Below are positions 16,201-61,926 of a DNA stretch of 64,000 nt, piece by piece. The stretch is taken from positions 16,763 to 80,762 of IMG/VR virus record IMGVR_UViG_3300032323_001070. The stretch is one strand, 5' to 3'. The position numbers and the translations under genes were made by a program. This DNA is from a virus. Every line of letters starts with the position of its first letter. Position 1 is the first letter of the stretch. The notes beneath the pieces were generated by a model, which was not told the origin of the DNA, did no database searches, and saw only the letters and a list, made by a program, of their open reading frames with translations.

Positions 16201-16872
16201 ATGGCAATCATTCAATCAGGTGCATCAAGCGATTTATTAACAGTTGACTCCGGCTTCAAGGCTGCAAGAGTCAGTGTTCTTCCGCCGAACGCTACAGGAT
16301 ATTTTCAACTAGGTGCATTCACAGGCTCACTTTCCGGAACCGGCGTGGCTGCAAACTCACCAGTATTCAGTATGCGATGGGCACCAGCAACTGGCAGGAT
16401 CGCAGTTATTAGACGTATAGGTATAGGCTTTGTTCAAACCGTAGGTTGGACTGCAGGTGCAGCACACGAATATTCATTGTTCGTTGCTAGAGGTTGGACA
16501 GCTAGTGATTCAGGCGGTACAGCGGTTACTGTAGCGGCTAACTCTAATAAAATGAGAACCAGTGGAGATCCTAGCGGTTTCAATACTCCGTCAGATATTA
16601 GGGTGGCAACAACTTCAACATATACTGCCGGTACAAGAACATTAGATACCAATCCTGTCGCAACTACTATATTTTCCGCAAGCCAGGTAGCTGTGGCTTC
16701 TGCAATATATCCTCAACAGTATAATTTAATACATGATGTTAACACTGGTGATCATCCTATCATTTTAGATAATAATGAAGGACTTGTGATCAATAATGTA
16801 ACAGTATTTCCTGCAGCAGGAAATGCAAGAATGTTTTTCAACATCGAATGGTTTGAAACAACAGCATATTGA
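16201..16872 (+). CDS. putative virion protein
   Basis: 223 aa, late promoter and SD GAGG, beta-rich. Confidence 0.65.
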   Translation: MAIIQSGASSDLLTVDSGFKAARVSVLPPNATGYFQLGAFTGSLSGTGVAANSPVFSMRWAPATGRIAVIRRIGIGFVQTVGWTAGAAHEYSLFVARGWTASDSGGTAVTVAANSNKMRTSGDPSGFNTPSDIRVATTSTYTAGTRTLDTNPVATTIFSASQVAVASAIYPQQYNLIHDVNTGDHPIILDNNEGLVINNVTVFPAAGNARMFFNIEWFETTAY

Positions 16873-45375: not shown

Positions 45376-46569
45376 ATGCCGAACCATCTTTATTTCGAAG
45401 ACGCCTTTGTGGAATTTTATTCACATGTAATGTATGGAAAAATTCCACTGCAATATCAGGATCAGCATCCCTGTGATAATTTTTACAATTTAATCACTGA
45501 CAAAAAACAGTTGACCGAAAATCAAGGTCGGTTCATCGTCAAGATTTTAGAAAAATATAAGAAATTTTCTTCGAACCTCGGTCTTCGGTATCAACACCTA
45601 CTAGACAACCCCAAGTGGAAAAATACGTTCCGGATCATTGATACTTCTAAAAAGATTTTCATCGAAAACGATGATCAAAATAACCTCTGGATCAACGCAA
45701 AATTTCCGTATGCTTTGAAAGATATCTTTCAAAAAGAAATTGTTGATCCTAGTGGATTAACTGGTAGTCATTGGGATCCTGAATCTAAAGTAAGAAGGAT
45801 TCCTTTCAGAAATTGCAACATTATACACATTTATGAATTTGCTATAAAACATGGTTTTGAGGTGGATGATTCGGTATTAACTGCCATGAGCGAGGTGGAA
45901 GAGATTTGGAACAATGCACATGATGTTGTTCCATATTCAAAAATAATCGATGACAAAGTCTATCTCATAAACGCCAACGAAGATGTAGAAGCATGGTGGT
46001 CTGAGAATTCAACAGGCACTATTCAACAAGACATGTTTTTGGCAAAAACTGCTGGATTTCCTCTACAAATTGAAGAACAGGATCACAGCGACATTCTGGA
46101 ACGCATTTCAACTTCAGAAGAAACTCATTTCTGGATCAAAGACAACGATCAGTTTTTTAATCTGTACAATACCCTAGGTGGAAAGTGTGCTGTGGTATTA
46201 GATAGAAACTGTGATGTCAAAGAATGGATCGGCGATTTTGTAAATTCTGCTGAAAAAAACCAGATCAATCGAAACCTTATAAAAGTCTGTTTTAGAGAAT
46301 CTCAAGAAGATAAATCAGGTTTCAATGATTGGATCAAACAAAACAATTTGGGCGGTACGTTAGAAAATGCTGATATCTTTATTTTTCAACATAAGCCTCC
46401 CAAGTGGTTGTTCAAAGATAATATTTCTGTTAAAATAGTAGTTACGAATGGTTTATATCCTTCTACGAGTAATTTAACACAGGCATTAACAGAGTCACAT
46501 CCCTGTGTGATACACCTTGGAAATATAAAGCCATCGGCACAAAGGAAAATAACAATTGTCGACTTGTAA
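45376..46569 (+). CDS. hypothetical protein upstream of UvsW
   Basis: 397-aa ORF overlapping the uvsW start. Confidence 0.7.
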   Translation: MPNHLYFEDAFVEFYSHVMYGKIPLQYQDQHPCDNFYNLITDKKQLTENQGRFIVKILEKYKKFSSNLGLRYQHLLDNPKWKNTFRIIDTSKKIFIENDDQNNLWINAKFPYALKDIFQKEIVDPSGLTGSHWDPESKVRRIPFRNCNIIHIYEFAIKHGFEVDDSVLTAMSEVEEIWNNAHDVVPYSKIIDDKVYLINANEDVEAWWSENSTGTIQQDMFLAKTAGFPLQIEEQDHSDILERISTSEETHFWIKDNDQFFNLYNTLGGKCAVVLDRNCDVKEWIGDFVNSAEKNQINRNLIKVCFRESQEDKSGFNDWIKQNNLGGTLENADIFIFQHKPPKWLFKDNISVKIVVTNGLYPSTSNLTQALTESHPCVIHLGNIKPSAQRKITIVDL

Positions 46570-48010
46570 ATTAACAATCAAGGATGAAGTTAATATAAAA
46601 TTTGATGGATTGGCTGTTGAAACTAGAAGAAAAATAGTCAACAAATTAAAATACGATCTTCCCTATGCACGACATATGCCTGCTTACAAATTAGGCAGAT
46701 GGGACGGAACAAAAACTTTCTTCGGCATCGGCGGCACTGGATATCTAGCACATCTCGATGTGATTCTTCCTATAGTTGAAGAATCAGGATATGAAATAGA
46801 AGTTGAAGATCTTCGACAATTCCGTGATTTTAAATTTTCTCCAGTAACTGAAAACTATTGGGCTGATCAAGGCAAGACATGGCCCAAGGGTCATCCGGCC
46901 GCAGGGCAACCTATCGTACTTCGAGATTATCAGTACGATGTGATCAATAAGTTTTTAGAAAATCCACAGAGCCTACAAGAAGTGGCCACAGGCGCAGGTA
47001 AAACGATTACTACCGCTACATTAAGTCATCTCTGCGAACCTTATGGTCGCACTATGGTTGTTGTTCCAAACAAATCTTTAGTGGTGCAAACTGAAGAAGA
47101 TTATAAAAACTTAGGCTTGGATGTTGGCGTATACTTCGGTGATCGTAAAGAACTAAATCGCACACATACTATCTGCACTTGGCAGAGTCTTAACGTCTTA
47201 GATAAGAAAAGTTATGATGATGATACGTTGACACTGGCTGAATTCTGTGAAGGTGTCTGCGCTATAATCATCGACGAAGTACATCAAGCCAAGGCAGATG
47301 TGTTGACTAAGTTGCTGACACAGAATTTTAAAAACTGTGCGATACGTTGGGGATTGACAGGAACTATACCTAAAGAAAAATGGGAGTTTCAAAGTCTACT
47401 GGCCAGTATTGGTCCAGTAATTAATCAAGTCACTGCTCACGACTTACAACAAAAAGATGTATTGGCGAAATTAGATATACAAATACTACAGACCACTGAC
47501 GTAGAAGTATTTAGAACCTACGCAGAAGAATATGCATGGTTGGTAACTGATAGCAAGAGATTGGATTGGATCTCAGATAAGATTAAAAATATAGCCTCTT
47601 CAGGAAACACATTGATATTGGTTAATAGGATCGATACTGGAAACAAACTGGTAGAGCGATTGCCTGACTCTGTTTTCATCTCTGGCGCTGTTAAACTCGA
47701 GGATAGGAAAGACGAATATGATGAAGTTAAAACTAGCGATAACAAGGTTATTGTGGCGACTTACGGTGTGGCCGCTGTGGGTATTAATATTCCAAGGATT
47801 TTTAATCTGGTTCTTATTGAACCCGGAAAGAGCTTTGTCCGCGTTATACAAAGCATTGGGCGAGGCATTAGAAAAGCAGAAGACAAAGACTTCGTTCAAA
47901 TCTGGGATATCACATCTACCTGCAAATACGCCAAGCGCCATCTCACTGAAAGGAAGAAGTATTACAAGGATGCTAAGTATCCGTTCACGATCACGAAGGT
48001 AACAACATGA
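46556..48010 (+). CDS. uvsW: SF2 DNA helicase
   Basis: LRDYQ, ATGAGKT, DEVH, GLTGT, QSIGRGIR. Confidence 0.9.
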   Translation: MSTCKLTIKDEVNIKFDGLAVETRRKIVNKLKYDLPYARHMPAYKLGRWDGTKTFFGIGGTGYLAHLDVILPIVEESGYEIEVEDLRQFRDFKFSPVTENYWADQGKTWPKGHPAAGQPIVLRDYQYDVINKFLENPQSLQEVATGAGKTITTATLSHLCEPYGRTMVVVPNKSLVVQTEEDYKNLGLDVGVYFGDRKELNRTHTICTWQSLNVLDKKSYDDDTLTLAEFCEGVCAIIIDEVHQAKADVLTKLLTQNFKNCAIRWGLTGTIPKEKWEFQSLLASIGPVINQVTAHDLQQKDVLAKLDIQILQTTDVEVFRTYAEEYAWLVTDSKRLDWISDKIKNIASSGNTLILVNRIDTGNKLVERLPDSVFISGAVKLEDRKDEYDEVKTSDNKVIVATYGVAAVGINIPRIFNLVLIEPGKSFVRVIQSIGRGIRKAEDKDFVQIWDITSTCKYAKRHLTERKKYYKDAKYPFTITKVTT

Positions 48011-49015: not shown

Positions 49016-49242
49016 TGCCTATACCATTTATGGACAACGATTCTTTCAAGCGCCGATGTATTGGTTGGAAATTAATATTTTGTCTTTGGCCTAGACGTTG
49101 TTTTTATACTGGTAAATATCTTTGGTTACAACTCGCATATAGAGGTACAGCAATGATTACTGGACCCGGTGAACCTATATTTGAAGATAGGTGGTGCGAA
49201 AAACGAGAATATCTTTTTTTAAAGATAAAAGGAATAGTATGA
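49015..49242 (+). CDS. hypothetical protein
   Basis: 75 aa, coupled on both sides. Confidence 0.55.
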   Translation: MPIPFMDNDSFKRRCIGWKLIFCLWPRRCFYTGKYLWLQLAYRGTAMITGPGEPIFEDRWCEKREYLFLKIKGIV

Positions 49243-49871
49243 AAGTAGTAATATATCACGCAGAGGCAGGCGTGGCTAAAAAACGAAGAGAAGGCATATA
49301 CAAAGAATTAACAGCCTTATTAAAAAAGAATGTTAACAGTTTTGGATTTCCCCTAATCCACCTAACAACTACTGGGCACGAAGGTTGGGGAGATGAAAAC
49401 TATTTTTATGATCTCGATCCTGAATTGGTTAATTATAATCGAGAATTGTGTTATATAGACTTCTTAAAAAATTCTGCTAACGACACAGATGTTTATTGGT
49501 TTACAGAACCAGATTGGAGAATAAATCAACTATTTCCTCCGTTAGAAAACGACATAGATTTTCTTCTAAGAGACGATAGCGCACCACTTCATCCCGGTTG
49601 GAGATTAGCTAAAAGGTCAGCTCTACCGGTATTTGAAGAAACTTTAAAATGTTACGATCTTCGCCCTGATCAGAAAGTCTGGGGTGGTGATTCTACCGGA
49701 CTTAGAAATCTTTATGATAATTTTGGCCGACCAACCAATACTATCAAAGCATTTGGTTGTTCAATAGGTTTTAGATATTATAAGAGTTATGGAATGAGAA
49801 AAGCAAAGTATACTCAACAGTTCAAAGCTGACCATAAAGAAGAACTTTTAGAAAGGTATGGAAAAGAATGA
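49239..49871 (+). CDS. putative glycosyltransferase-like protein
   Basis: Start MKVVIYH (ATGA overlap), FTEPD and WGGD motifs, glycan-island context. Confidence 0.45.
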   Translation: MKVVIYHAEAGVAKKRREGIYKELTALLKKNVNSFGFPLIHLTTTGHEGWGDENYFYDLDPELVNYNRELCYIDFLKNSANDTDVYWFTEPDWRINQLFPPLENDIDFLLRDDSAPLHPGWRLAKRSALPVFEETLKCYDLRPDQKVWGGDSTGLRNLYDNFGRPTNTIKAFGCSIGFRYYKSYGMRKAKYTQQFKADHKEELLERYGKE

Positions 49872-50212
49872 AAGCAGGAAAAGTTTGGGGTGTAACAGAA
49901 TTGCTAGAAGCCAACGGTGTGCTAGAATTTCATCGCATCGAAGCTAAAGCAGGCGGAGTGTGTTCGAAGCACAAGCACAAGTATAAGTGGAATGGTTTCT
50001 TCGTCGAATCAGGTAAGATGATCATACGAGTATGGAAGAACAGCTACGACCTAGTAGACGAAACTATGTTAACAGCAGGTCAATATACTAAAGTTGCGCC
50101 TGGTGAATATCATCAATTTGAAGCAGTAGAAGATTGTGTCGCATTTGAATTGTATTGGGCAGAATTTGACCACGATGATATTGAAAGAGAATCAGTAGGA
50201 TTTAGTAAATGA
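49868..50212 (+). CDS. cupin-domain protein (sugar isomerase-like)
   Basis: KVWG, SKHKH..K.N.F.VESG, PGEYHQF. Confidence 0.75.
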   Translation: MKAGKVWGVTELLEANGVLEFHRIEAKAGGVCSKHKHKYKWNGFFVESGKMIIRVWKNSYDLVDETMLTAGQYTKVAPGEYHQFEAVEDCVAFELYWAEFDHDDIERESVGFSK

Positions 50213-50808
50213 TATTAAATGATCAGCCAAAGACATTTGTTATCGCTCTTAAAAATCATTCGATAAGTGAGAAACAACTATCAGATTGTTTGGAAAGTGC
50301 GAAAGAATTTAATTGGTCGATAGAAGTATTTTGGGGTACAGACGGTAGAACCCTTACAGAAAAATCCTGGAATGATATAGGAGTAACACCTTTATATCAT
50401 AAAGGAAGTATGGACAGGCCCGGAACATGGGGATGTTTTTTCAGTCACTGGTACTTATGGAATAAGTGCATTGATATGAACGAGCCGATAGTCGTTCTAG
50501 AACACGATGCTATTATAGAAGACCACTGGAGAGTTTTTGATTTAAAATCATTAACTAAGCTTCATGAAAATTATTCTTTAAAGAAGCCGCACAAATGGGT
50601 CGATGAAGACAGTGGAGTTTGTTCGTCGTCTACTCACGCATATTGTATTTCGCCTAAGGCTGCTCAGAAAATGATTAAATTTTCTCAAAAAGTAGGTGCA
50701 TTTGCAGCCGATAGAATGATTGGAGACAAAGTATTATCATTCGAACATTTAGATGGAAACAGTCTGGTAACTAGACAAAATAGTTATTCAACAACGGAGA
50801 ACTTATGA
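50209..50808 (+). CDS. glycosyltransferase family 25
   Basis: FVIAL, DG, GCFFSH..LW, VLEHDA, HAY.ISP..A. Confidence 0.8.
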   Translation: MILNDQPKTFVIALKNHSISEKQLSDCLESAKEFNWSIEVFWGTDGRTLTEKSWNDIGVTPLYHKGSMDRPGTWGCFFSHWYLWNKCIDMNEPIVVLEHDAIIEDHWRVFDLKSLTKLHENYSLKKPHKWVDEDSGVCSSSTHAYCISPKAAQKMIKFSQKVGAFAADRMIGDKVLSFEHLDGNSLVTRQNSYSTTENL

Positions 50809-51380
50809 AGATAAAAAATACAGTAATGAAAGATAAAAACTATAAACACTTGGGGGGCAATTTAGAAAACGGGGATCCTGATACGTTTTCTGAAAAAGTT
50901 TGGAAATATCTTTTAGAAGTTACAAATTCTAATAAAATTCTTGATTTAGGATCAGGTAGAGGATATACAAGCAAATGGTTTATCGATCACGGATTAACAG
51001 TTACAGCGGTAGACGGCCTTGAACAAAATGTTAGTACTGCTATAGTTCCTACTATATTACACGATTTAACTACTGGCCCTTATTTAAATTTAGTTGATTT
51101 GGTTATATGTGTTGAAGTTGTAGAACATATTGAAGAAATTTTTTTAGAAAATCTATTAAATTCACTCTCTAGCGGAAATTATATTTTTATGACTCATGCA
51201 GTACCAGGTCAGACCGGATATCATCATGTCAACTGTCAAAACAGTGAATATTGGATTAATCATCTAGCAAACAAAAATTTTAAATTATTAGAAACAGAAT
51301 CTAATAAATTAAGAGAATTAGCAAAAGAAGATAATGCAAAATGGCTAGCACAAAATGGTATGATTTTTCAAAGGATCTAA
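50805..51380 (+). CDS. class I SAM methyltransferase
   Basis: LDLGSGRG, CVEVVEHI, PGQ.G.HHVN. Confidence 0.8.
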   Translation: MKIKNTVMKDKNYKHLGGNLENGDPDTFSEKVWKYLLEVTNSNKILDLGSGRGYTSKWFIDHGLTVTAVDGLEQNVSTAIVPTILHDLTTGPYLNLVDLVICVEVVEHIEEIFLENLLNSLSSGNYIFMTHAVPGQTGYHHVNCQNSEYWINHLANKNFKLLETESNKLRELAKEDNAKWLAQNGMIFQRI

Positions 51381-51381
51381 A

Positions 51382-52095
51382 GTGTTTATACATACAGTGT
51401 ATAAGTCAGAAGAAAATGTTGATTATTTAAAAGATTGGCTAGTCCATCATAGCTTAATCGGCATCGAACACTTCTATATGTATGATAATAGCGGAGCACA
51501 TGATTATCCGTACGATCCGTCTTATATTGTTCCTTCCCATACAAACAAATACGGAGAACTTATTAAGTACACGGTAGAAGAAGCAAGGGAAAAACAACAA
51601 GAAATTTTTAAAGAGTTTCCAGTAACGGTTATTCCGTGGCAAAACAGAGATGCTAATGGTAAATTGCTATATTATCAGAAAGAATCTATTATTCATTTTA
51701 GCCAGTTAGTAAAAAAAGGATTATGCGCCTTTATAGATATCGATGAATTTATCATTAAAAAAGAAAATTTTAGAGTATCTAGAATGAATCAACGAAAATT
51801 TAAAGCAAGGCATCATTACAGTAGTGTCCACGACTGTCACGAATATTTTGATGTTGATACTACAGGTTGGGGGACAAAGGTTATTTTAGATATGGCTAAT
51901 TTTCCATCTTCTAATCAATATAAAAATATTCACTTTGTACATCTCGATTTACCTGCGTCTGCCTCATATTTTAATCACTATAATCATTGCGAATCTGCTC
52001 ATCAATGGCTTATTATGAATGGAAAAAATATTGATCCTGATTATAACAACATATATCAAAGATTAGAAGATACAGAATTAAAGAAAAAAATATGA
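51382..52095 (+). CDS. glycosyltransferase (GT92/GT2-like)
   Basis: E...L.DW..HH..IG..HFY.YDN, FIDIDEFI, NHY. Confidence 0.7.
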   Translation: MFIHTVYKSEENVDYLKDWLVHHSLIGIEHFYMYDNSGAHDYPYDPSYIVPSHTNKYGELIKYTVEEAREKQQEIFKEFPVTVIPWQNRDANGKLLYYQKESIIHFSQLVKKGLCAFIDIDEFIIKKENFRVSRMNQRKFKARHHYSSVHDCHEYFDVDTTGWGTKVILDMANFPSSNQYKNIHFVHLDLPASASYFNHYNHCESAHQWLIMNGKNIDPDYNNIYQRLEDTELKKKI

Positions 52096-52766
52096 ATATA
52101 AAAGCCTTTACTATCAGAAAACCCAATGACGATTTGTCAGAAAGACTGTCAGACGAATTAATAGAATCTGGAAAACAGTTTGGTATCGCTATCGAAAAAG
52201 TTGATGGCGTATACGCTAACCAAGCAGAAATTATTCAGCAAAAAGGTCTGCATGTATTTGAAAAGATGAAGGAAGCAAAAAAACAAAACAAAGGCATGCA
52301 AGGCTGTTTTCTAAGTCATTATCAACTATGGGAACGCTGCTTAGAATTAAATGAACCTATTCTAATATTTGAACATGATGCATTGATCATTAGACCATTG
52401 CCAGACAATTTTCTTAACTTGTTCACACATCATGCGATATTAGATTATGCTTGCCATTATCCAGACTATGAAGAAATAGTTCTTCGTGACGGCCCGTTGA
52501 AGATTACAAATTTTCCGTTTATCGAAAATGTACCAGCAACATATAAGGGATTAAATTCCTCACACGTTAAGGGATCACACGCTCATGCAATTAAACCAGA
52601 GGGTGCTAGAACATTAATTTCTAATGTAAAAAAGTATGGATTTGTCGCATCTGACATGTGCGTTAATCAATTCTATACATCATATATAACCATTGACCCT
52701 ATCATTGCTAGGGTTAATCCTTTCGTAAGTCAAAAGAATAGACATTTATCACATACAAAATCATGA
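52092..52766 (+). CDS. glycosyltransferase family 25
   Basis: GCFLSHY.LW, IFEHDA, HA.AIKP.GA. Confidence 0.8.
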   Translation: MNIKAFTIRKPNDDLSERLSDELIESGKQFGIAIEKVDGVYANQAEIIQQKGLHVFEKMKEAKKQNKGMQGCFLSHYQLWERCLELNEPILIFEHDALIIRPLPDNFLNLFTHHAILDYACHYPDYEEIVLRDGPLKITNFPFIENVPATYKGLNSSHVKGSHAHAIKPEGARTLISNVKKYGFVASDMCVNQFYTSYITIDPIIARVNPFVSQKNRHLSHTKS

Positions 52767-53590
52767 AAATATTAATTACAGGAAATGCAGGATATATCGG
52801 TAGTCACCTTTCTAATATGTTGTTAGAAAAAGGAGGACACGAAATACACGGGTTAGATAAAAAGAAATCTCAAGTACCGTTGTATAAACATTATTATCAA
52901 GACATTAGAAATACAGAATGGAACATGCAGGATTCCTACGATTGTGTCATCCATCTTGCTGCGGAAGTATCTGTGAGCAGAAGTGTTGATAATCCTATAT
53001 TATACTACACCACAAATACCATCGGTACTTTAAATGTTTTAAGAAATATTAAAACTAAAAGATTTATTCATGCCAGCACAGGTTCCGCAGGCCCGATGAA
53101 TAATCCCTACGGTATCAGCAAACGCGGTGCCGAAGAAATTGTTGATCAATTCTGTAAGCAGAACGATATTCCATTTACAACATTTAGATTTTACAATGTC
53201 ACAGGTACAGATGGCATCGAACCAACAAATCCAGACGGTTTGATGTGGAATCTAATGAACGCAGAAAAAACAGGTGTGTTCAATTTATTTGGCAATGATT
53301 ATAACACCGAAGACGGTACCGCAGTGCGTGATTACACTCACGTAAATGAAATATGCAACGCTGTTTCACAGGCCATAGACCAATCAACTAACACCATAGA
53401 AAATCTAGGTCATGGTGTAGGCACTACTGTACAACAAATGGTTGATCTATACAAAAACATCAACAACTGCGATTTCAAAGTAAACATCTGCGATCGTCGA
53501 GCAGGTGATCTAGAACGAAGCGTTTTAGATAATCCTTCTAAATTTATGACCAAGATGTATACTATGCAGGATCTTTTAAAGGTGAGATAA
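52763..53590 (+). CDS. galE: UDP-glucose 4-epimerase-like NAD-dependent epimerase
   Basis: TGNAGYIGSH, HLAA, YGISK, RFYNV, DGT.VRDY.HV, RRAGD. Confidence 0.88.
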   Translation: MKILITGNAGYIGSHLSNMLLEKGGHEIHGLDKKKSQVPLYKHYYQDIRNTEWNMQDSYDCVIHLAAEVSVSRSVDNPILYYTTNTIGTLNVLRNIKTKRFIHASTGSAGPMNNPYGISKRGAEEIVDQFCKQNDIPFTTFRFYNVTGTDGIEPTNPDGLMWNLMNAEKTGVFNLFGNDYNTEDGTAVRDYTHVNEICNAVSQAIDQSTNTIENLGHGVGTTVQQMVDLYKNINNCDFKVNICDRRAGDLERSVLDNPSKFMTKMYTMQDLLKVR

Positions 53591-53867: not shown

Positions 53868-54333
53868 ACACGTAGACCTTTTCAAAGATATGATTCCTGC
53901 TGTAGATATGGGCTTAAAGGAATTATGGGATGCCGTCTCTGATGATGGTCGAAAAGAAATCAAAGGCGATCTATGGAACCTAAACAGATACATTAGTTCT
54001 GTAAAAAGTTCTAATAGAGAATTGCAGGAACATTTCTTATTGACCACTAACGAATTTTATAATAAGAATTGGAACGAGATACAGAAACATCCTAAGCTAG
54101 TCTGGCAGTCTCTGTGTCTATGTAGCCATGAAACTAAAAAGACCTACTTTCATGAGTGGGTTCCTTTGAAAAAAGAAAAGAACAAAAAAGAAGAATTCTT
54201 AGCAGGTTTATTTCCTAACATGAAGAGAGCAGACATTGAAACACTCGCAGCCATCACTACAGACAAAGAAATCAAGCGATATTGTGAGGACCTTGGTTGG
54301 GATAAAAAAGCGGTCAATGGAATTAAACTATAA
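53854..54333 (+). CDS. clamp-loader small subunit-like (T4 gp62-like)
   Basis: LNRYISS..NE..N..HPKL.W..L..HEW..KK pattern. Confidence 0.55.
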   Translation: MGQNKHVDLFKDMIPAVDMGLKELWDAVSDDGRKEIKGDLWNLNRYISSVKSSNRELQEHFLLTTNEFYNKNWNEIQKHPKLVWQSLCLCSHETKKTYFHEWVPLKKEKNKKEEFLAGLFPNMKRADIETLAAITTDKEIKRYCEDLGWDKKAVNGIKL

Positions 54334-55000
54334 GTGCGAATACTGCGGCAAGTTATTTGCTAAAGAAAAAACTCTGTTCATACATATCTGTGAACAGAAG
54401 CGCAGACACTTGAGTAAAAACGAGAAGCATGTTCAAGCAGGTCTTCTTACATTCCAACGATTTTATTCGATAACAAATAAAAATTCTAAAGCTAAGACTT
54501 TTGATGAATTTGCCAAAAGTCCTTACTATACTGCCTTTGTAAAATTTGGCAGCTTCATGATCAATACCGCTCCTATCTATCCAGAAAGATTTATAGACTT
54601 CGTAATCAAGAGCGGAGTTAAATTAGATCATTGGTGTCGTGACGAATTATATGACACATACATCAGCGAACTTATCAAGATAGAACCAGCCGATGGAGCC
54701 ATACAGCGTAGCATACAGACTATGATGGATTGGGCTGATACTAATAAGGCAGAGTGGGAACATTACTTTGCCTATGTAAATCTTAATCGTGCTACACATG
54801 ATATCAAAGAAGGGCTAGTGTCGCCGTGGATGGTATTAAATACCAAGAGCGGTAAAGAGATGTTGCAGAGATTAAATGACGAACAGTTAGATATAATTGC
54901 TCCGATAATTGACCCACAGTTCTGGATGAAAAGATTTAAATCATCGCCTGCCGATTTAGAATTAGTAAAAGACATTGTTAAAGAGGGCAAAATACTATAA
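54317..55000 (+). CDS. hypothetical protein with an N-terminal Zn finger
   Basis: YKCEYCGK.F......HIC; start MELNY. Confidence 0.7.
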   Translation: MELNYKCEYCGKLFAKEKTLFIHICEQKRRHLSKNEKHVQAGLLTFQRFYSITNKNSKAKTFDEFAKSPYYTAFVKFGSFMINTAPIYPERFIDFVIKSGVKLDHWCRDELYDTYISELIKIEPADGAIQRSIQTMMDWADTNKAEWEHYFAYVNLNRATHDIKEGLVSPWMVLNTKSGKEMLQRLNDEQLDIIAPIIDPQFWMKRFKSSPADLELVKDIVKEGKIL

Positions 55001-55227
55001 TGCCAAAAAGACCAGAACCCGAGATTCAAGAAGAAGAATTAAAAGAAAACGAAGAGTTCATTTCGAGGGACGACATTGACATTGAAGTCATGCACACCAT
55101 GGATGATGAACCAGCTGTTTATGTAAAATTTACCGGTTTCGATGATGAAGAAGATGCTGAAGACTATGCACAATTCTTAGCAGAAACTTTGCCATTGTTG
55201 TTGTTTGAAAGCACGAGATTACAGTAA
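55000..55227 (+). CDS. small acidic hypothetical protein
   Basis: 75 aa, TAATG coupling on both sides. Confidence 0.65.
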   Translation: MPKRPEPEIQEEELKENEEFISRDDIDIEVMHTMDDEPAVYVKFTGFDDEEDAEDYAQFLAETLPLLLFESTRLQ

Positions 55228-55805
55228 TGCCAGATATAGATATTGATTTTGTAGACAGAGAACAGGCATTGAATTTATTCAAGCATGTAGTTGCCAGTCG
55301 AGTTGACAGCGATGAATTGGTCAAGCATAATACTGGCATATATCTACACGAAGTTCCAGTTAATGCGAAATCTAATCTATGTGCTGTGCCGTATGAACAG
55401 GCAGAAGATCAAGGCTTCTTTAAGATAGATTTTCTAAACGTAGGTTTGTACAAAGGTGTTCGCAATGAAGAACATCTCATTCAACTAATGGAGACTGAAC
55501 CACTATGGGATCTACTGTTAGACGACGCATTTATCCAGAACCTATTCCACGTGAATGGGCATGGGTCTATTCTGAGACAGATGGAACCAAAAAGTATAGA
55601 ACAATTGGCAGCGGTATTGGCGATGATCAGACCCGCGAAACGCTCGCTGATTGGGAAAGATTGGACTACGGTGATGAAGGAAGTTTGGACGAAACCGGAC
55701 GGTGACGAATATTACTTTAAGAAATCACATGCCACAGCCTATGCTGTCGCGATTGTCGTTCAGATGAATTTAATATGTGAACAAATTAGTTACGGGTACT
55801 TATAA
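55227..55805 (+). CDS. dnaE: miniature/split DNA polymerase III alpha (family C) catalytic fragment
   Basis: MPDIDIDF, KHNTG, KIDFL, A.IRP, FKKSHA.AYA motifs within 192 aa. Confidence 0.8.
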   Translation: MPDIDIDFVDREQALNLFKHVVASRVDSDELVKHNTGIYLHEVPVNAKSNLCAVPYEQAEDQGFFKIDFLNVGLYKGVRNEEHLIQLMETEPLWDLLLDDAFIQNLFHVNGHGSILRQMEPKSIEQLAAVLAMIRPAKRSLIGKDWTTVMKEVWTKPDGDEYYFKKSHATAYAVAIVVQMNLICEQISYGYL

Positions 55806-55806
55806 T

Positions 55807-56730
55807 ATGAATCCAAAAGGCGGCACCGAGCTATTAAAAGAAAAGCTCTTAGAAAAAGTACCTGCAGAATTATTTGATGGTATAAATCTAATAACCAGCA
55901 TCTGCGATGAATCGATGTTGGATCCTACAAAAATAAATGTGATGTGGCAGCATCTGAGTTACGATCAACCTAACGTAACAAAAATGACTGATAAAAAATT
56001 CACAGACAAAGTTGATTATTTTGTTTATGTGTCACACTGGCAGCATGAAAAATTTAGATATAAATTCAACACACCGTTAAGCAGATCTAAAGTAATTAAG
56101 AATGCTATTGAACCAATACCTTATAAAGAAAAACCAAAAAAAATCAAACTAGTATACAGCTCTACACCGTGGCGAGGCCTTGAAGTTTTATTGCGAGCCT
56201 TTGAAGTGTTAGACAGAGATGATGTCGAATTAGATGTATATTCGTCAACGATTATCTATGGCAGTGACTTTCATAAAGGTGCTGATCAACATTACAAGCA
56301 TCTCTACGATAAGGCAAAATCAATGAAGAATGTTAACTACAAAGGTTATGCATCTAATGAAGAAGTTAGAAAAGCATTGACTGAGGCACACATTCTAGCC
56401 TATCCAAGTATCTGGGAAGAGACCAGTTGTCTATGTGCTATCGAAGCTGCTATGGCAGGGTGTTCAGTTGTAACTACCAACTACGGTGCGTTATATGAAA
56501 CACTCGGTGAATGGGGAACGTTTGTAGAGTTCAACACTGATGGTGATGAATTAGTTAAAAATTATGTGGAAGTGTTGAATAAAGAGATTGATAATTTTTG
56601 GTCTACTTCAACGCAACAGCGTCTGTTAGATCAGCACGTTTATTTCACGAATTTTTACACCTGGGATAAACGAGCCCAAGAATGGATTGAATTCTTAACT
56701 AAGATCCAATCAAGTAGGTCTTCTAACTAA
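55807..56730 (+). CDS. GT-B glycosyltransferase (GT4-like)
   Basis: GGTE, YSSTPWRGL, YPS.WEETSC..AIEA (EX7E). Confidence 0.8.
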   Translation: MNPKGGTELLKEKLLEKVPAELFDGINLITSICDESMLDPTKINVMWQHLSYDQPNVTKMTDKKFTDKVDYFVYVSHWQHEKFRYKFNTPLSRSKVIKNAIEPIPYKEKPKKIKLVYSSTPWRGLEVLLRAFEVLDRDDVELDVYSSTIIYGSDFHKGADQHYKHLYDKAKSMKNVNYKGYASNEEVRKALTEAHILAYPSIWEETSCLCAIEAAMAGCSVVTTNYGALYETLGEWGTFVEFNTDGDELVKNYVEVLNKEIDNFWSTSTQQRLLDQHVYFTNFYTWDKRAQEWIEFLTKIQSSRSSN

Positions 56731-57081
56731 CGTAATCGACTTACGTTTAATTCTCTTTACGATAATATCGTTTAAGCTGGTACAAGGACCGAACATTATT
56801 TTAACGTCTTTGGTACTGAAGTTTTTAATAGCATAGCGGAATTCTACTATTTCTCGATGTAGGAAAATGTTAATAGGAATCTGTCTATTTGATTCCCACC
56901 ACCATGCTTCGCCTAGTTCTAAAAATCGTGATTTTTCTTCATCTGTACGGATACTTGCATAGTCGTATAGGCTGGTGATTTGGGCATCTTGGTTTATAAT
57001 TATACCCACGTATTCTCTATCTACGTGGTTAATAACGCTTATAAACGGAAAGTTTTCTTGTAGGTTTTCTGTAATCCGCAT
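56710..57081 (-). CDS. hypothetical protein
   Basis: 123-aa ORF with WWWESNR and a basic tail. Confidence 0.7.
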   Translation of the reverse strand: MRITENLQENFPFISVINHVDREYVGIIINQDAQITSLYDYASIRTDEEKSRFLELGEAWWWESNRQIPINIFLHREIVEFRYAIKNFSTKDVKIMFGPCTSLNDIIVKRIKRKSITLVRRPT

Positions 57082-57928: not shown

Positions 57929-57934
57929 TTGTTT

Positions 57935-58954
57935 ATGACTCTGGTCGTAGACAAATTTCGCTCGCTGATCCCACCACGTGCTAAAAGTAGCCCTAGTGGT
58001 TGGACATCATTCAACGCACCCTGTTGCCAGCATCGCGGGCATAGTCCGGATACTCGTAAAAGGGCAGGCGTTCGCTTTGACCAAGGCATCGTCTATAATT
58101 GTTTCAACTGTAAATTTAGCACAGGCTGGCAACCAGGATCACCGATTGGTGAGAAAATGAAAACCCTGTTACGCTGGATGGGTGCCAGTGAAGATGCAAT
58201 TAAAGAAATGGTATTCGAAGCACTTAAAACTGAAGGTGAAGAATACAAGCCCGAACAATATCAAGCTAAAGTAGAATTTGAAGAGAAGCCATTACCGGAA
58301 GATGCGTTACCTATCAGCGAATGGGCTAATCAATCTTCTGCGCTATTAACTGATCTAGGACCTGTAGTAGAATACATTGTTGATAGAGGATTTGATCCAG
58401 CATCAGATAATTTTTATTGGAGTCCATCTTCCGGTTACACTGATCGTGTGATCATTCCGTTTAGATGGCAAGGACGCATTGTAGGCAATACTGCTCGCAA
58501 GGTCAGAGACGGTAGACCTAAATATCTATCAGACCAACACCCGCATTTTGTTTTCAACTTTGATAGCCAAACAGAAGATCAGAAGTATATATTTGTATGC
58601 GAAGGTCCTTTTGACGCACTGGCTGTAGACGGTGTTGCCCTACTAACTAACGAAATTTCCGATCAGCAGAGTAGAATAATTAACAGTCTAAATACCAAAG
58701 TAATCGTGATCCCAGATCAAGACAAAGCAGGACTGGTTTTGTTTGATCGAGCCGCTGAACTAGATTGGGCAGTAGCCATGCCTAACTGGGATGATGATGT
58801 CAAAGACTGTGCAGACGCTGTGCAACGATACGGCAAATTATTTGTGATCGTTGATGCCATAATGACCGCACAACAAGGTGCCATTAAGATCAATATGGCC
58901 AAGAAAAGAATGGAACAAAAATTAGAGAGATTGTCTTATGCAGAAAATAATTGA
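57935..58954 (+). CDS. gp61: DNA primase (T4 gp61-like)
   Basis: Zn ribbon (CC..YNCFNC), RVIIPF, PKY, TOPRIM EGPFDA, PDQD, KD. Confidence 0.88.
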   Translation: MTLVVDKFRSLIPPRAKSSPSGWTSFNAPCCQHRGHSPDTRKRAGVRFDQGIVYNCFNCKFSTGWQPGSPIGEKMKTLLRWMGASEDAIKEMVFEALKTEGEEYKPEQYQAKVEFEEKPLPEDALPISEWANQSSALLTDLGPVVEYIVDRGFDPASDNFYWSPSSGYTDRVIIPFRWQGRIVGNTARKVRDGRPKYLSDQHPHFVFNFDSQTEDQKYIFVCEGPFDALAVDGVALLTNEISDQQSRIINSLNTKVIVIPDQDKAGLVLFDRAAELDWAVAMPNWDDDVKDCADAVQRYGKLFVIVDAIMTAQQGAIKINMAKKRMEQKLERLSYAENN

Positions 58955-59051
58955 TATATTGTTATGGCCTTATAGAAAGATCAAAGACTATTACGAATTC
59001 AAAAAGAAAATGAAAGAATTACGGAAGAGAGATCCTTTTATCTACAAATGA
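58938..59051 (+). CDS. 37-aa basic peptide ending RDPFIYK, coupled to the carbamoyltransferase
   Basis: Own translation MQKIIDILLWPYRKIKDYYEFKKKMKELRKRDPFIYK*; ATGA overlap with 59048. Confidence 0.65.
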   Translation: MQKIIDILLWPYRKIKDYYEFKKKMKELRKRDPFIYK

Positions 59052-60493
59052 TTACCTGGGGAATTAGTGCAAACAGCCATAACGCTGCATTGGCTGTATT
59101 TGAAGATAATGAAATTTTATTTGCCAGCGACTCTGAACGTTTTAGTAAAATAAAAAACGATCCAAACCTACATCCGGAGTTGGTAGCCTATGCACGAAGA
59201 TTTGGCGAACCCGATCTAGTATGTTGGTACGAGAAACCTTGGTTAAAAACTCTAAGACAGTTATATGCGGGCCAAGGTCTTAACAATAATAATGTAAAAA
59301 CATATCTAAAAAAGTACGGAATCACAGCGCCAATTAAAACTCTTCATCATCACGAGAGTCATGCTGCTGCCGGATACTATACCAGCAATTTTGATGATGC
59401 CTGTGTGGTAGTTATTGATTCCATCGGAGAATTTGAAACTATCACAGTATGGAAAGGCGATAACGGAAAACTGACAAAACTATTCAGTCAGTCATATCCA
59501 AACAGCATAGGCCTTTGGTATTCGGCGATGACACAACGTTGCGGATTAAAACCCAATGAAGAAGAATACATTCTAATGGGTATGGCAGCGTATGGTGATG
59601 CCAATAAGCTGAATCTAAAAATATCCAAAGACTTTATAAAAAGTTTCGAAACATTTGAGTTTAATAAAAATCTACATCGCGGCTGCAAAGATTGGGCGCC
59701 GGAGATAACTGAAGTATTTGATATCGCTGCATCTACGCAGAACGTATACGAGCTGTTGTTTGATCGAGTGTTAAACAAAGCTCGTACAATGGTTTCATCG
59801 CCTAATCTTGTGCTCATGGGCGGCTGTGCTCTAAACTGTTCAGCCAACCCTATCGCCTTTAGATACTTTGAACGAGTTTGGATCATGCCGGCCCCGGGTG
59901 ACAACGGATCTAGTATCGGCAGTGTTCTAGCACATAGGAAGAGAGCAGCTAATTGGAGAGGACCATATCTAGGCTATGATATGGGCTACAAAACTGATAA
60001 CGCAGAGATTGTCGATTATCTTATCGAAAATAAAATCTGTGGCCTGGCTAGAGGTCGTGCAGAATTTGGACCTAGAGCATTAGGCAATAGAAGTCTGTTA
60101 GCAGATCCCAGAGATCCTAAGATCAAAGACCTCGTAAATGATATTAAACAGCGAGAAAAGTTTAGACCGTTCGCTCCTGCGATATTAGAAGAACACGCCA
60201 AAGACTACTTTGAAATGCCAACAATATCAACACCTTACATGCAGTACACCGTGAAATGTAAGCAGCTAGACAAGTTTCCTGGAATTGTACATGCAGATGG
60301 TACTAGTCGTGTACAAACAGTCAATAGATATGGAAATCCTGAATTCCGTAGATTATTAGAAGAATGGTACAAGCGAACCGGCTGTCCGATGTTGTTGAAT
60401 ACCAGTTTGAATATCAAAGGCCAGCCTATGGTAAACGATCATGCCGATGCAAAGAACTGGAGCCAGGCCTATGGTTTACCTGTGTTTAATTAG
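59048..60493 (+). CDS. O-carbamoyltransferase (NodU/CmcH/TobZ family)
   Basis: ERFS..K, HH.SHAA, LMGMAAYG, GGCALN, EFGPRALGNRS, RPFAP, HADGTSR.QTV, LNTSLN. Confidence 0.92.
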   Translation: MITWGISANSHNAALAVFEDNEILFASDSERFSKIKNDPNLHPELVAYARRFGEPDLVCWYEKPWLKTLRQLYAGQGLNNNNVKTYLKKYGITAPIKTLHHHESHAAAGYYTSNFDDACVVVIDSIGEFETITVWKGDNGKLTKLFSQSYPNSIGLWYSAMTQRCGLKPNEEEYILMGMAAYGDANKLNLKISKDFIKSFETFEFNKNLHRGCKDWAPEITEVFDIAASTQNVYELLFDRVLNKARTMVSSPNLVLMGGCALNCSANPIAFRYFERVWIMPAPGDNGSSIGSVLAHRKRAANWRGPYLGYDMGYKTDNAEIVDYLIENKICGLARGRAEFGPRALGNRSLLADPRDPKIKDLVNDIKQREKFRPFAPAILEEHAKDYFEMPTISTPYMQYTVKCKQLDKFPGIVHADGTSRVQTVNRYGNPEFRRLLEEWYKRTGCPMLLNTSLNIKGQPMVNDHADAKNWSQAYGLPVFN

Positions 60494-60510: not shown

Positions 60511-61926
60511 ATGATTAAAGATTACGGATACGAAGTACAAAAACTATATCTCGAACTGATGCTGGCAGATGCCGAAGTGTTTGTTCGTTGTCAAGGCATT
60601 TTCGATCATTCACTGTTTGATCGCAAACTGCAAGATGCCGCTGAGTTTATCAATGTCTATGCCAAAGAATATTCAGTGCTGCCAGACTATGAAATGGTCA
60701 ATGCATCATGCAGATCTGATCTCAAGCGTCCAGAAGATATCAAAGAAGGTCACTTAGATTGGCTCATGGATGAATTTGAATCGTTCACGAGACACAAGGC
60801 CATCGAGCGAGCGATTATCGCCAGTGCGGATCTATTAGAAAAACATAACTATGGTGAAGTAGAATCGCTGATCAAAGAAGCAGTACAGATTGGTCTTGCT
60901 CGTGACATGGGCACAGACTACTTTGAAGATCCTAGAGGAAGATTGCTGGGACTCAAAGATAAGAATGGTCAGATCTCAACGGGTTGGCCCTGTATGGATC
61001 GTAAACTGTTTGGAGGTATGAACCGTGGTGAGCTTAATATTTTTGCTGGCGGTAGTGGTGCAGGTAAATCGTTATTTCTCGCGAACCTTGGTGTTAACTG
61101 GGCATTGGCTGGGCTGAATGTAGTTTATCTAACACTGGAACTTTCAGAAGCATTAGTCAGTATGCGTATTGACTCGATGGTCACAGGTGTGTCAACGAAA
61201 GAGATTTTCAAAGATCTTGATGATGTTGAAATGAAAGTAAAGATGATTGGCAAGAAAGCAGGTATGCTACAGATCAAGTACATGCCCAGTGGTAAAACAG
61301 TCAATGACATCCGAGCATATATCAAAGAATATGAGATACGCTGTGGCAAGAAAGTAGACGTATTGTTGGTAGACTACATGGATCTGCTGATGCCAATCGG
61401 TAAGAAGATCTCAGCAGAAAACCTGTTCGTCAAAGACAAGTATGTGTCAGAAGAACTTAGAAATCTTTCCATGGAAAAGAAAGTGTTGTGTGTGACAGCG
61501 GCACAGTTGAATCGTGGTGCTGTAGAAGAAGTAGAATTTGATCACAGTCATATTTCAGGCGGATTAAGTAAGATTCAGACAGCGGATAACGTGTTTGGTA
61601 TCTTTACATCAAGAGCCATGCGTGAGCGTGGACGTTATCAAATCCAGTTGATGAAAACTCGTTCATCCAGTGGTGTAGGACAAAAGATCGATTTAGAATT
61701 CAACATCGAAAGTCTGCGCATCAGCGATCTGCCAGAAGAAGAGCAAGAAGGCAACGGTGCTATCAGCAGAGGTGCTAGCTCAATCATTGACAGCATCAAG
61801 CGTAAAACTGAAGTACAGCAGAGAGAAGAACCCACTGATGGTGTTCCTGTAGGCAAAGTCCGTGCAGAAGTACAGAGCAGTAAGCTACGCGAAATCCTCA
61901 GCAACATGGGTAACGATGAAGAATAA
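60511..61926 (+). CDS. gp41: replicative DnaB-family helicase
   Basis: GGSGAGKS, TLEL, VDYMDL, TAAQLNR, MKTR. Confidence 0.92.
   Translation: MIKDYGYEVQKLYLELMLADAEVFVRCQGIFDHSLFDRKLQDAAEFINVYAKEYSVLPDYEMVNASCRSDLKRPEDIKEGHLDWLMDEFESFTRHKAIERAIIASADLLEKHNYGEVESLIKEAVQIGLARDMGTDYFEDPRGRLLGLKDKNGQISTGWPCMDRKLFGGMNRGELNIFAGGSGAGKSLFLANLGVNWALAGLNVVYLTLELSEALVSMRIDSMVTGVSTKEIFKDLDDVEMKVKMIGKKAGMLQIKYMPSGKTVNDIRAYIKEYEIRCGKKVDVLLVDYMDLLMPIGKKISAENLFVKDKYVSEELRNLSMEKKVLCVTAAQLNRGAVEEVEFDHSHISGGLSKIQTADNVFGIFTSRAMRERGRYQIQLMKTRSSSGVGQKIDLEFNIESLRISDLPEEEQEGNGAISRGASSIIDSIKRKTEVQQREEPTDGVPVGKVRAEVQSSKLREILSNMGNDEE

Follow-up and report, generated by a model that had tools for sequence, protein, structure and literature searches.

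Why do T4-like jumbo phages, whose family B replicase is complete, universally retain an additional, pared-down polymerase beside the primase and helicase genes? This question, posed in print already in 2021, is met again in a stretch of 64,000 nucleotides of viral DNA (positions 16,763 to 80,762 of IMG/VR record IMGVR_UViG_3300032323_001070; hereafter the window), in which an open reading frame (ORF) at 55227-55805 on the plus strand encodes a protein of 192 amino acids (aa) with the catalytic motifs of the DNA polymerase III alpha subunit (Pol III alpha, DnaE). The window is part of an 80.7-kb record, a fragment with an estimated completeness of about 22%, and sequencing runs sharing its DNA carry the labels freshwater, lake or plankton metagenome; one of these runs contains 98% of the words sampled, and none of the runs listed is of RNA. 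Our analysis indicates that the gene quite likely encodes the C-terminal unit (C-half) of a two-piece minimal DnaE-like Pol III alpha of the 'group 2.2' jumbo phages (the RaK2, PA5oct and Atu_ph07 lineage), made up of the palm strands with the catalytic aspartates and a trimmed remnant of the fingers. The split arrangement as such has been known since 2021, when Iyer, Anantharaman, Krishnan, Burroughs and Aravind (Viruses 13:63; PMC7824862) predicted from sequence the same split minimal Pol III alpha in group 2.2 jumbo phages, its two units being a nucleoside triphosphate (NTP)-binding subdomain and a Mg/template-binding subdomain. GenBank already annotates both halves, e.g. as 'DnaE-like DNA polymerase III alpha' in Phosso, and the Atu_ph07 paper labels gp316 as a Pol III alpha subunit. 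The window is one further member, from an abundant freshwater lineage, and our additions are modest, namely purifying-selection statistics, a heterodimer model for the lineage, and natural fused forms.

A compact copy of the DnaE palm and fingers

The ORF is intact, and its product begins with M-PDIDIDF. Along the protein we located PDIDIDF at residues 2-8, KHNTG at 33-37, KIDFL at 66-70, IRPA at 134-137 and FKKSHATAYA at 164-173. By homology to E. coli alpha, the codons for D3-I4-D5 (55233..55241; plus strand, as for the other codons of this ORF) specify the catalytic DxD pair (E. coli D401/D403) and those for K66-I67-D68 (55422..55430) the third catalytic aspartate with its adjacent lysine (E. 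coli K553/D555). The codons for R135-P136 within IRPA, the DnaE 'FRPG' (55629..55634), align to E. coli R639-P640, and 55716..55745 encode the finger helix FKKSHATAYA, which is 'FNKSHSAAYA' in DnaE (E. coli 756-765). The ATG overlaps the TAA of an upstream ORF of 75 aa (TAATG; AGTAATGCC), and 2 nt lie between the stop codon and the ATG of the next gene. Neither PHP, OB nor any other Pfam domain scored above threshold in the 192-aa protein, the sole trace being DNA_pol3_finger (PF17657) with 13.4 bits, below the cut-off of 22. The pattern G[RK]GS was absent from all six frames of the window, and hence from the 192-aa ORF. An earlier reading of this DNA that had only the letters to go by (the sequence-only reading) had described a 192-aa ORF opening at MPDIDIDF with these motifs in order, clean translational coupling to the ORF upstream, no PHP, OB or clamp-binding region, and no GRGS in either of the two ORFs, and each of these descriptions held.

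The protein matches phrog_11778 ('DNA polymerase', a profile of 197 positions) with an E-value (E) of 1.2e-67 over residues 3-186 of 192. Searches with tblastn found it in 96 cultured-phage records, nearly all of them from jumbo phages, with identities of 51% to the copy of Phosso, the nearest from a cultured phage, 52% over a shorter match to that of Atu_ph07, 43% to the PA5oct group and 35-40% to the copies of RaK2, 121Q, GAP32 and CBB. In IMG/VR at least 550 loci carry relatives, and the best 80 of these are 66-85% identical, uncultured and from freshwater, many of them on large contigs. An exhaustive HMMER scan of 1.84 billion representatives yielded 416 clusters (50% identity) at E <=1e-3; among the 150 clusters listed nearly all members stand alone, with a length of about 180-215 aa, or are shorter pieces. 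Together with the phrog_11778 and IMG/VR matches, this puts the ORF well outside what chance would produce.

The relationship to DnaE emerges with a family profile. With the single 192-aa sequence, phmmer gave no significant match in PDB (E 0.4), and a profile was needed; built from 85 diverse relatives, it matched Pol III alpha chains only (9 distinct sequences, E 6e-6 to 1e-4). In the profile alignment residues 54-140 correspond to E. coli alpha 538-641 and residues 151-180 to 739-769, with K66/D68 falling on K553/D555, KIDFL on KFDFL (553-557), IRP on FRP (638-640) and FKKSH on FNKSH (756-760). MPDIDIDF aligns to, and is identical with, residues 413-420 of M. tuberculosis DnaE1.

The predicted structure points in the same direction. 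The AlphaFold2 (AF2) model calculated from the family alignment has a predicted local distance difference test (pLDDT) score of 96.6, and all top 16 Foldseek hits with this model are Pol III alpha. In VIA-align, residues 1-192 of the model returned C-family polymerases for all of the top 15, with Z scores of 9.5 (PolC 3f2c; root-mean-square deviation 3.6, 189 aligned), 9.4 (Taq 3e0d) and 8.8 (E. coli 2hnh, chain 400-784), and the next unrelated fold scored Z 3.8. The 192 residues cover a stretch for which E. coli alpha needs about 385, E. coli 412-537 being replaced by residues 14-53 and E. coli 642-738 by residues 141-150; the thumb boundaries reportedly given by Lamers et al. in 2006 place the thumb inside the 412-537 stretch. 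Palm and fingers remnant account for the whole 192 aa in the VIA alignment. In compact form the protein reproduces DnaE residues ~400-784, keeping the palm strands with D3, D5, K66 and D68 and, of the fingers, a shortened part with R135, P136, K165/K166 and H168. The thumb insert and about 100 fingers residues are deleted, and the PHP, clamp-binding, HhH and OB domains are absent.

Conservation was assessed on the same 85 representatives, which have 31-60% identity. D3, D5, K66, D68 and P136 are invariant, and D7, H34, G37, R135, K165, H168 and A173 are conserved to at least 90%. Among close relatives, the pairwise ratio of non-synonymous to synonymous substitutions (dN/dS) has a median of 0.13 (219 pairs with dS 0.05-1.5; 66 distinct close relatives). 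Synonymous sites of these relatives are near saturation when compared to the window, MPDIDIDF is invariant in all 66, and a length of 192 aa is kept in 63 out of 75. One could suspect a decaying remnant, i.e. a pseudogene fragment, of a captured bacterial dnaE, since the protein has about one sixth of the length of DnaE and large internal deletions. Purifying selection together with the invariant aspartates excludes decay, and the constant length, the 416 clusters and the confident fold prediction argue against it as well. We therefore rejected this explanation, to which we give practically no chance. The sequence-only reading had likewise considered the gene not to be decaying and all three catalytic aspartates to be retained; the dN/dS check that it had proposed supports the former, and the presence of D3, D5 and D68 in the window protein and in all 85 relatives the latter.

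The separate N-half and natural fused forms

The part of the enzyme that holds the GRGS motif was found in relatives as a separate N-terminal unit (N-half). Phosso gp138 and Atu_ph07 gp316 (177 aa each) score above the cut-off of Pfam DNA_pol3_alpha (PF07733), matching profile positions ~20-96, and read …V(W/K)GVGRGS…(DFDEFLN/DFSEFLE)*. They stop just where DnaE would go on with '…NPER…MPDxDxDF', i.e. where the C-half starts. We searched five large related metagenomic contigs (56-83% complete), and three of them (G002-G004) carry an N-half gene of 155-168 aa (…VWGVGRGSSVASY…EEFFKEI*) together with C-halves that are 68-74% identical to that of the window. Counts of records with an N-half and with a C-half agree genus by genus (Escherichia 34/34, Erwinia 8/8, Salmonella 8/8, Xanthomonas 4/4, Yersinia 4/4, Agrobacterium 2/2), and at least 22 phages with both halves were seen among the matches listed. 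The two genes are 14-224 kb apart in relatives and never adjacent, the distance being ~160-185 kb in G002-G004. N-half relatives make up at least 7,984 clusters with a range of 85-272 aa. The five closest IMG/VR relatives of the window (79-85% identical, on contigs that are 9-31% complete) gave no N-half match. The sequence-only reading had proposed that a minimal family C polymerase is split in two, with this gene as one half and the GRGS half in another part of the genome, and this is the arrangement seen in complete or near-complete relatives. Its suggestion to look for a small GxGRGS ORF in the rest of the genome was borne out in part: the 80.7-kb fragment has none, and relatives have GVGRGS ORFs of 155-177 aa.

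The N-half gene has conserved neighbours of its own. A GroES/gp31-like co-chaperonin and a MazG pyrophosphohydrolase are encoded near the N-half in all three neighbourhoods (G004 L094:1995-2755, L010 and L011); Atu_ph07 has a clamp-loader gene nearby in addition, and Phosso a gene for an AAA-ATPase.

A complex prediction for the two halves, as the sequence-only reading had suggested, was carried out with the N-half of G004 and the C-half of the window. The interface score ipSAE was 0.91 in every one of three runs, against 0.00 for the highest of three controls; among solved complexes 58 of 80 attain that mark, and among mismatched pairs 2 of 110. The runs have at least 76% of their contacts in common, and the pLDDT of the partner is 90. 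In the predicted interface, the WGVGRGSS loop (N-half residues 114-128) contacts two parts of the C-half, PDIDIDF (residues 2-9) and the KSH helix (residues 165-178). The complex score may reflect likeness to solved single-chain DnaE structures, because the two halves correspond to a fold that has been solved many times as one chain.

Nature also provides the two halves on a single chain. Three fused proteins from ENA and Logan (P0104, P0275 and P0276) are 375-376 aa long, share 78-81% mutual identity and are collinear with the two units: residues 6-179 match Phosso gp138 (E 2e-24) and residues 190-371 match the whole window protein (E 2e-27). The units are connected by a 10-residue linker, KDNKEGIYNI, and the split N-halves stop 0-5 residues from this linker. 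The source contigs of the fused form are short (2.4-5.9 kb). These proteins are not mentioned in PMC7824862 and would offer a convenient single-chain construct for bench work. An AF2 prediction of P0104 (alignment A4) reached a pLDDT of 48 and was not used. A scan of viral contigs for fused-form relatives returned none, and a scan of metagenome contigs returned one ordinary C-half and two matches across the split junction. One of these junction-spanning matches, L101, was rejected as a fused mini-DnaE, being an ordinary full-length cellular DnaE. A search for longer relatives of the C-half gave only P0153, a singleton of 350 aa on an ENA contig of 2,036 bp, in which an unrelated N-terminal part of 235 aa precedes the last ~115 aa of a C-half; it is probably derived from a chimeric or mis-assembled contig.

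Possible function and alternative readings

In the mechanism that we propose, a separate N-half of 155-177 aa, as present in relatives and presumed for the phage of the window, would supply the GxGRGS loop that binds the nucleotide phosphates. The two halves would associate non-covalently into one active site of the Pol-beta fold, with the GRGS loop packing on PDIDIDF and the KSH helix, and the heterodimer would then catalyse nucleotidyl transfer. More tentatively, it may act as a short-patch templated DNA polymerase of low processivity beside the family B replicase, extending primers or filling gaps at the replication fork. We propose a role at the fork because the gene is in fixed linkage with primase and helicase genes and because the finger motifs specific to polymerases are retained.

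Several observations weigh against this picture. The N-half in the predicted complex is that of the relative G004 and not that of the window's phage, whose pairing is presumed from that of relatives. Searches of the 80.7-kb record with PF07733, with the Phosso N-half and with an N-half profile of 45 rows found no N-half. This absence is uninformative, since the record is ~22% complete, and from the spacing of the halves in G002-G004 the fragment would not be expected to hold the N-half. A family B polymerase (PolB; PF00136) was likewise not found in the window or in the ~22% complete record. On the 192-aa protein itself the Pfam DnaE models stay below threshold. Templated, processive synthesis is not assured, because the loss of thumb, HhH, clamp-binding and OB elements removes most contacts to the DNA duplex. 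Finally, Iyer et al. 2021 and the Atu_ph07 paper were all that the literature search turned up on the split enzyme; it looked for bench work and for later accounts, and yielded no bench test of any family member.

The same missing elements would fit a heterodimer that is a nucleotidyltransferase and not a templated polymerase, for example a terminal transferase or tailing enzyme, an enzyme that makes or modifies primers, or a producer of nucleotide signals or anti-defence compounds built on a Pol-beta-fold core. The thumb, HhH, clamp-binding and OB elements with which DnaE holds the duplex are gone, and a complete family B replicase is present in the lineage in any case. However, R135/P136 and FKKSHAxAY are specific to C-family polymerases and do not belong to other Pol-beta-fold transferases, and the gene is fixed within the primase-helicase module, so we regard this alternative as rather unlikely. 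At the other end of the scale, the ~350-aa two-piece core (or the 375-aa fused form) might be a self-sufficient template-directed DNA polymerase that serves as a primer-extension and hand-off enzyme for the family B replicase, working at the fork with primase and helicase. We consider this possible but doubtful. Such an enzyme would be comparable to B. subtilis DnaE, which works alongside PolC, or to eukaryotic Pol alpha. If true, the core would be the smallest C-family polymerase known.

Two further explanations concern the way in which the halves come together, if they do so at all. The 192-aa protein might act alone, repurposed for a catalytic or non-catalytic task such as binding metal and DNA or the host replisome; the 80.7-kb record holds no N-half, and the C-half gene never adjoins an N-half gene in any relative. 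Against this stand the low completeness of the record (~22%), the co-occurrence of the halves in the same genera (at least 22 phages) and on three of five large contigs, the existence of natural fused forms, and a predicted interface in which the catalytic strand becomes buried by contact with the GRGS loop. A stand-alone function is in our view very improbable. The sequence-only reading had named a repurposed nucleotidyltransferase as its alternative, and as a stand-alone enzyme this is not favoured, because by homology to DnaE the GRGS loop that is needed for NTP binding lies on the other protein. A covalent joining of the halves by a split intein, as established for the split dnaE of cyanobacteria, is contradicted by both ends of the split. 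The C-half starts at M-PDIDIDF, with no IntC of ~35 aa and no Cys, Ser or Thr at position +1, the N-halves end 0-5 residues from the FFKE(I)/FLN motif with no IntN of ~100 aa, and the split site differs from the cyanobacterial one. With no intein segment at either split end, we rejected this explanation, which is hardly credible. The preferred reading remains that of a C-half that pairs non-covalently with a distantly encoded N-half.

Genomic neighbourhood and comparison with known systems

The C-half is found with a primase and a DnaB-like helicase in a module that is conserved across Phosso, Atu_ph07, GAP32 and the PA5oct-like Ettore. The order of this module is UvsW-like helicase, other genes, phrog_11058, small ORF, C-half, phrog_11637 on the minus strand, virion-associated protein, primase and DnaB-like helicase. 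In the window, a UvsW-like DNA helicase is encoded at 46556..48010 (plus strand; phrog_16, E 3e-75), and a helicase stands at the same position in GAP32 and Ettore. A phrog_11058 protein with a trace of a C2H2-like zinc finger follows at 54236..55000 (plus; E 1.3e-59), where Phosso, Atu_ph07, GAP32 and Ettore have a gene of similar size. The 75-aa ORF whose stop overlaps the C-half start is acidic, lies at 55000..55227 (plus), is kept in part of the clade and belongs to no Pfam or PHROG family. On the other side of the C-half, the phrog_11637 gene (56710..57081, minus; E 1e-34) is downstream of the C-half in all relatives inspected. It is followed by a DNA primase with a Toprim domain at 57929..58954 (plus; phrog_47, E 7e-33; Toprim_2), which is syntenic with relatives, and by a DnaB/gp41-like replicative helicase at 60511..61926 (plus; phrog_19, E 4e-71). 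The sequence-only reading had placed the gene in a T4-type replisome. In the window such a context is visible only in part, through the primase and the DnaB/gp41-like and UvsW-like helicases; PolB is not in the fragment and is present in the relatives Phosso, Atu_ph07, G001, G003 and G004. An epsilon-like exonuclease (PF00929) had no match in the record of the window.

The module of the window has some features of its own. A GT4 glycosyltransferase gene (55808-56730, plus) is inserted between the C-half and the phrog_11637 gene, and a Nol-like carbamoyltransferase gene (59048-60493, plus) between primase and helicase; both of these sugar-modifying insertions are absent at those places in Phosso, Atu_ph07, GAP32 and Ettore. 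The region 49191-53590 (plus), which separates the UvsW-like helicase from the C-half region, encodes modification and sugar genes including 2OG-Fe(II) oxygenase-like, methyltransferase-like, glycosyltransferase-like and epimerase-like ones. Directly upstream of the C-half, two unrelated families of small ORFs alternate within the clade (loci L012-L091) and overlap its start by 1 or 8 nt. The window has the acidic type (…VYVKFSGFDDEEDAEEYAQFLAETLPLLLFESTRLQ), the other type has the pattern KCPxKW…DxETGE, and neither belongs to a known family.

A C-family polymerase of ~350 residues that is distributed over two distant genes defines the minimal core for catalysis in the bacterial replicase fold, and the split mini-DnaE would lend itself as a compact model for studies of structure and function. 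When compared to bacterial DnaE and PolC (2hnh, 3e0d, 5lew, 3f2c), the window protein is homologous over E. coli 400-784, has the same palm/fingers fold and carries the equivalents of the Asp triad, K553, FRPG and FNKSHxAAYA in the same order. These enzymes have 1,100-1,400 aa and the window protein 192; its GRGS-bearing first palm half is on another polypeptide, and in the 192-aa protein the thumb, ~100 finger residues and the PHP, clamp-binding, HhH, OB and tau-binding parts are missing. In cyanobacteria the dnaE gene is split as well, and the products of the two genes are joined by trans-splicing inteins. The phages share with this system a dnaE-type polymerase that is derived from two distant genes, but they have no intein segments, use another split site and encode a minimal core in place of a full-length enzyme. 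The fused mini-DnaE proteins P0104, P0275 and P0276 differ from the window protein in having both units on one chain. The C-terminal units of other group 2.2 phages (phrog_11778; Phosso gp437, Atu_ph07 gp074, GAP32_282) are likewise ~190 aa long, start at the DxD motif, have the same invariant residues and occupy the same slot in the primase-helicase module, in phages that possess a distant N-half and the PolB of the lineage. From these the window protein differs in lineage only, and its copy of the module carries the two inserted sugar-modifying genes.

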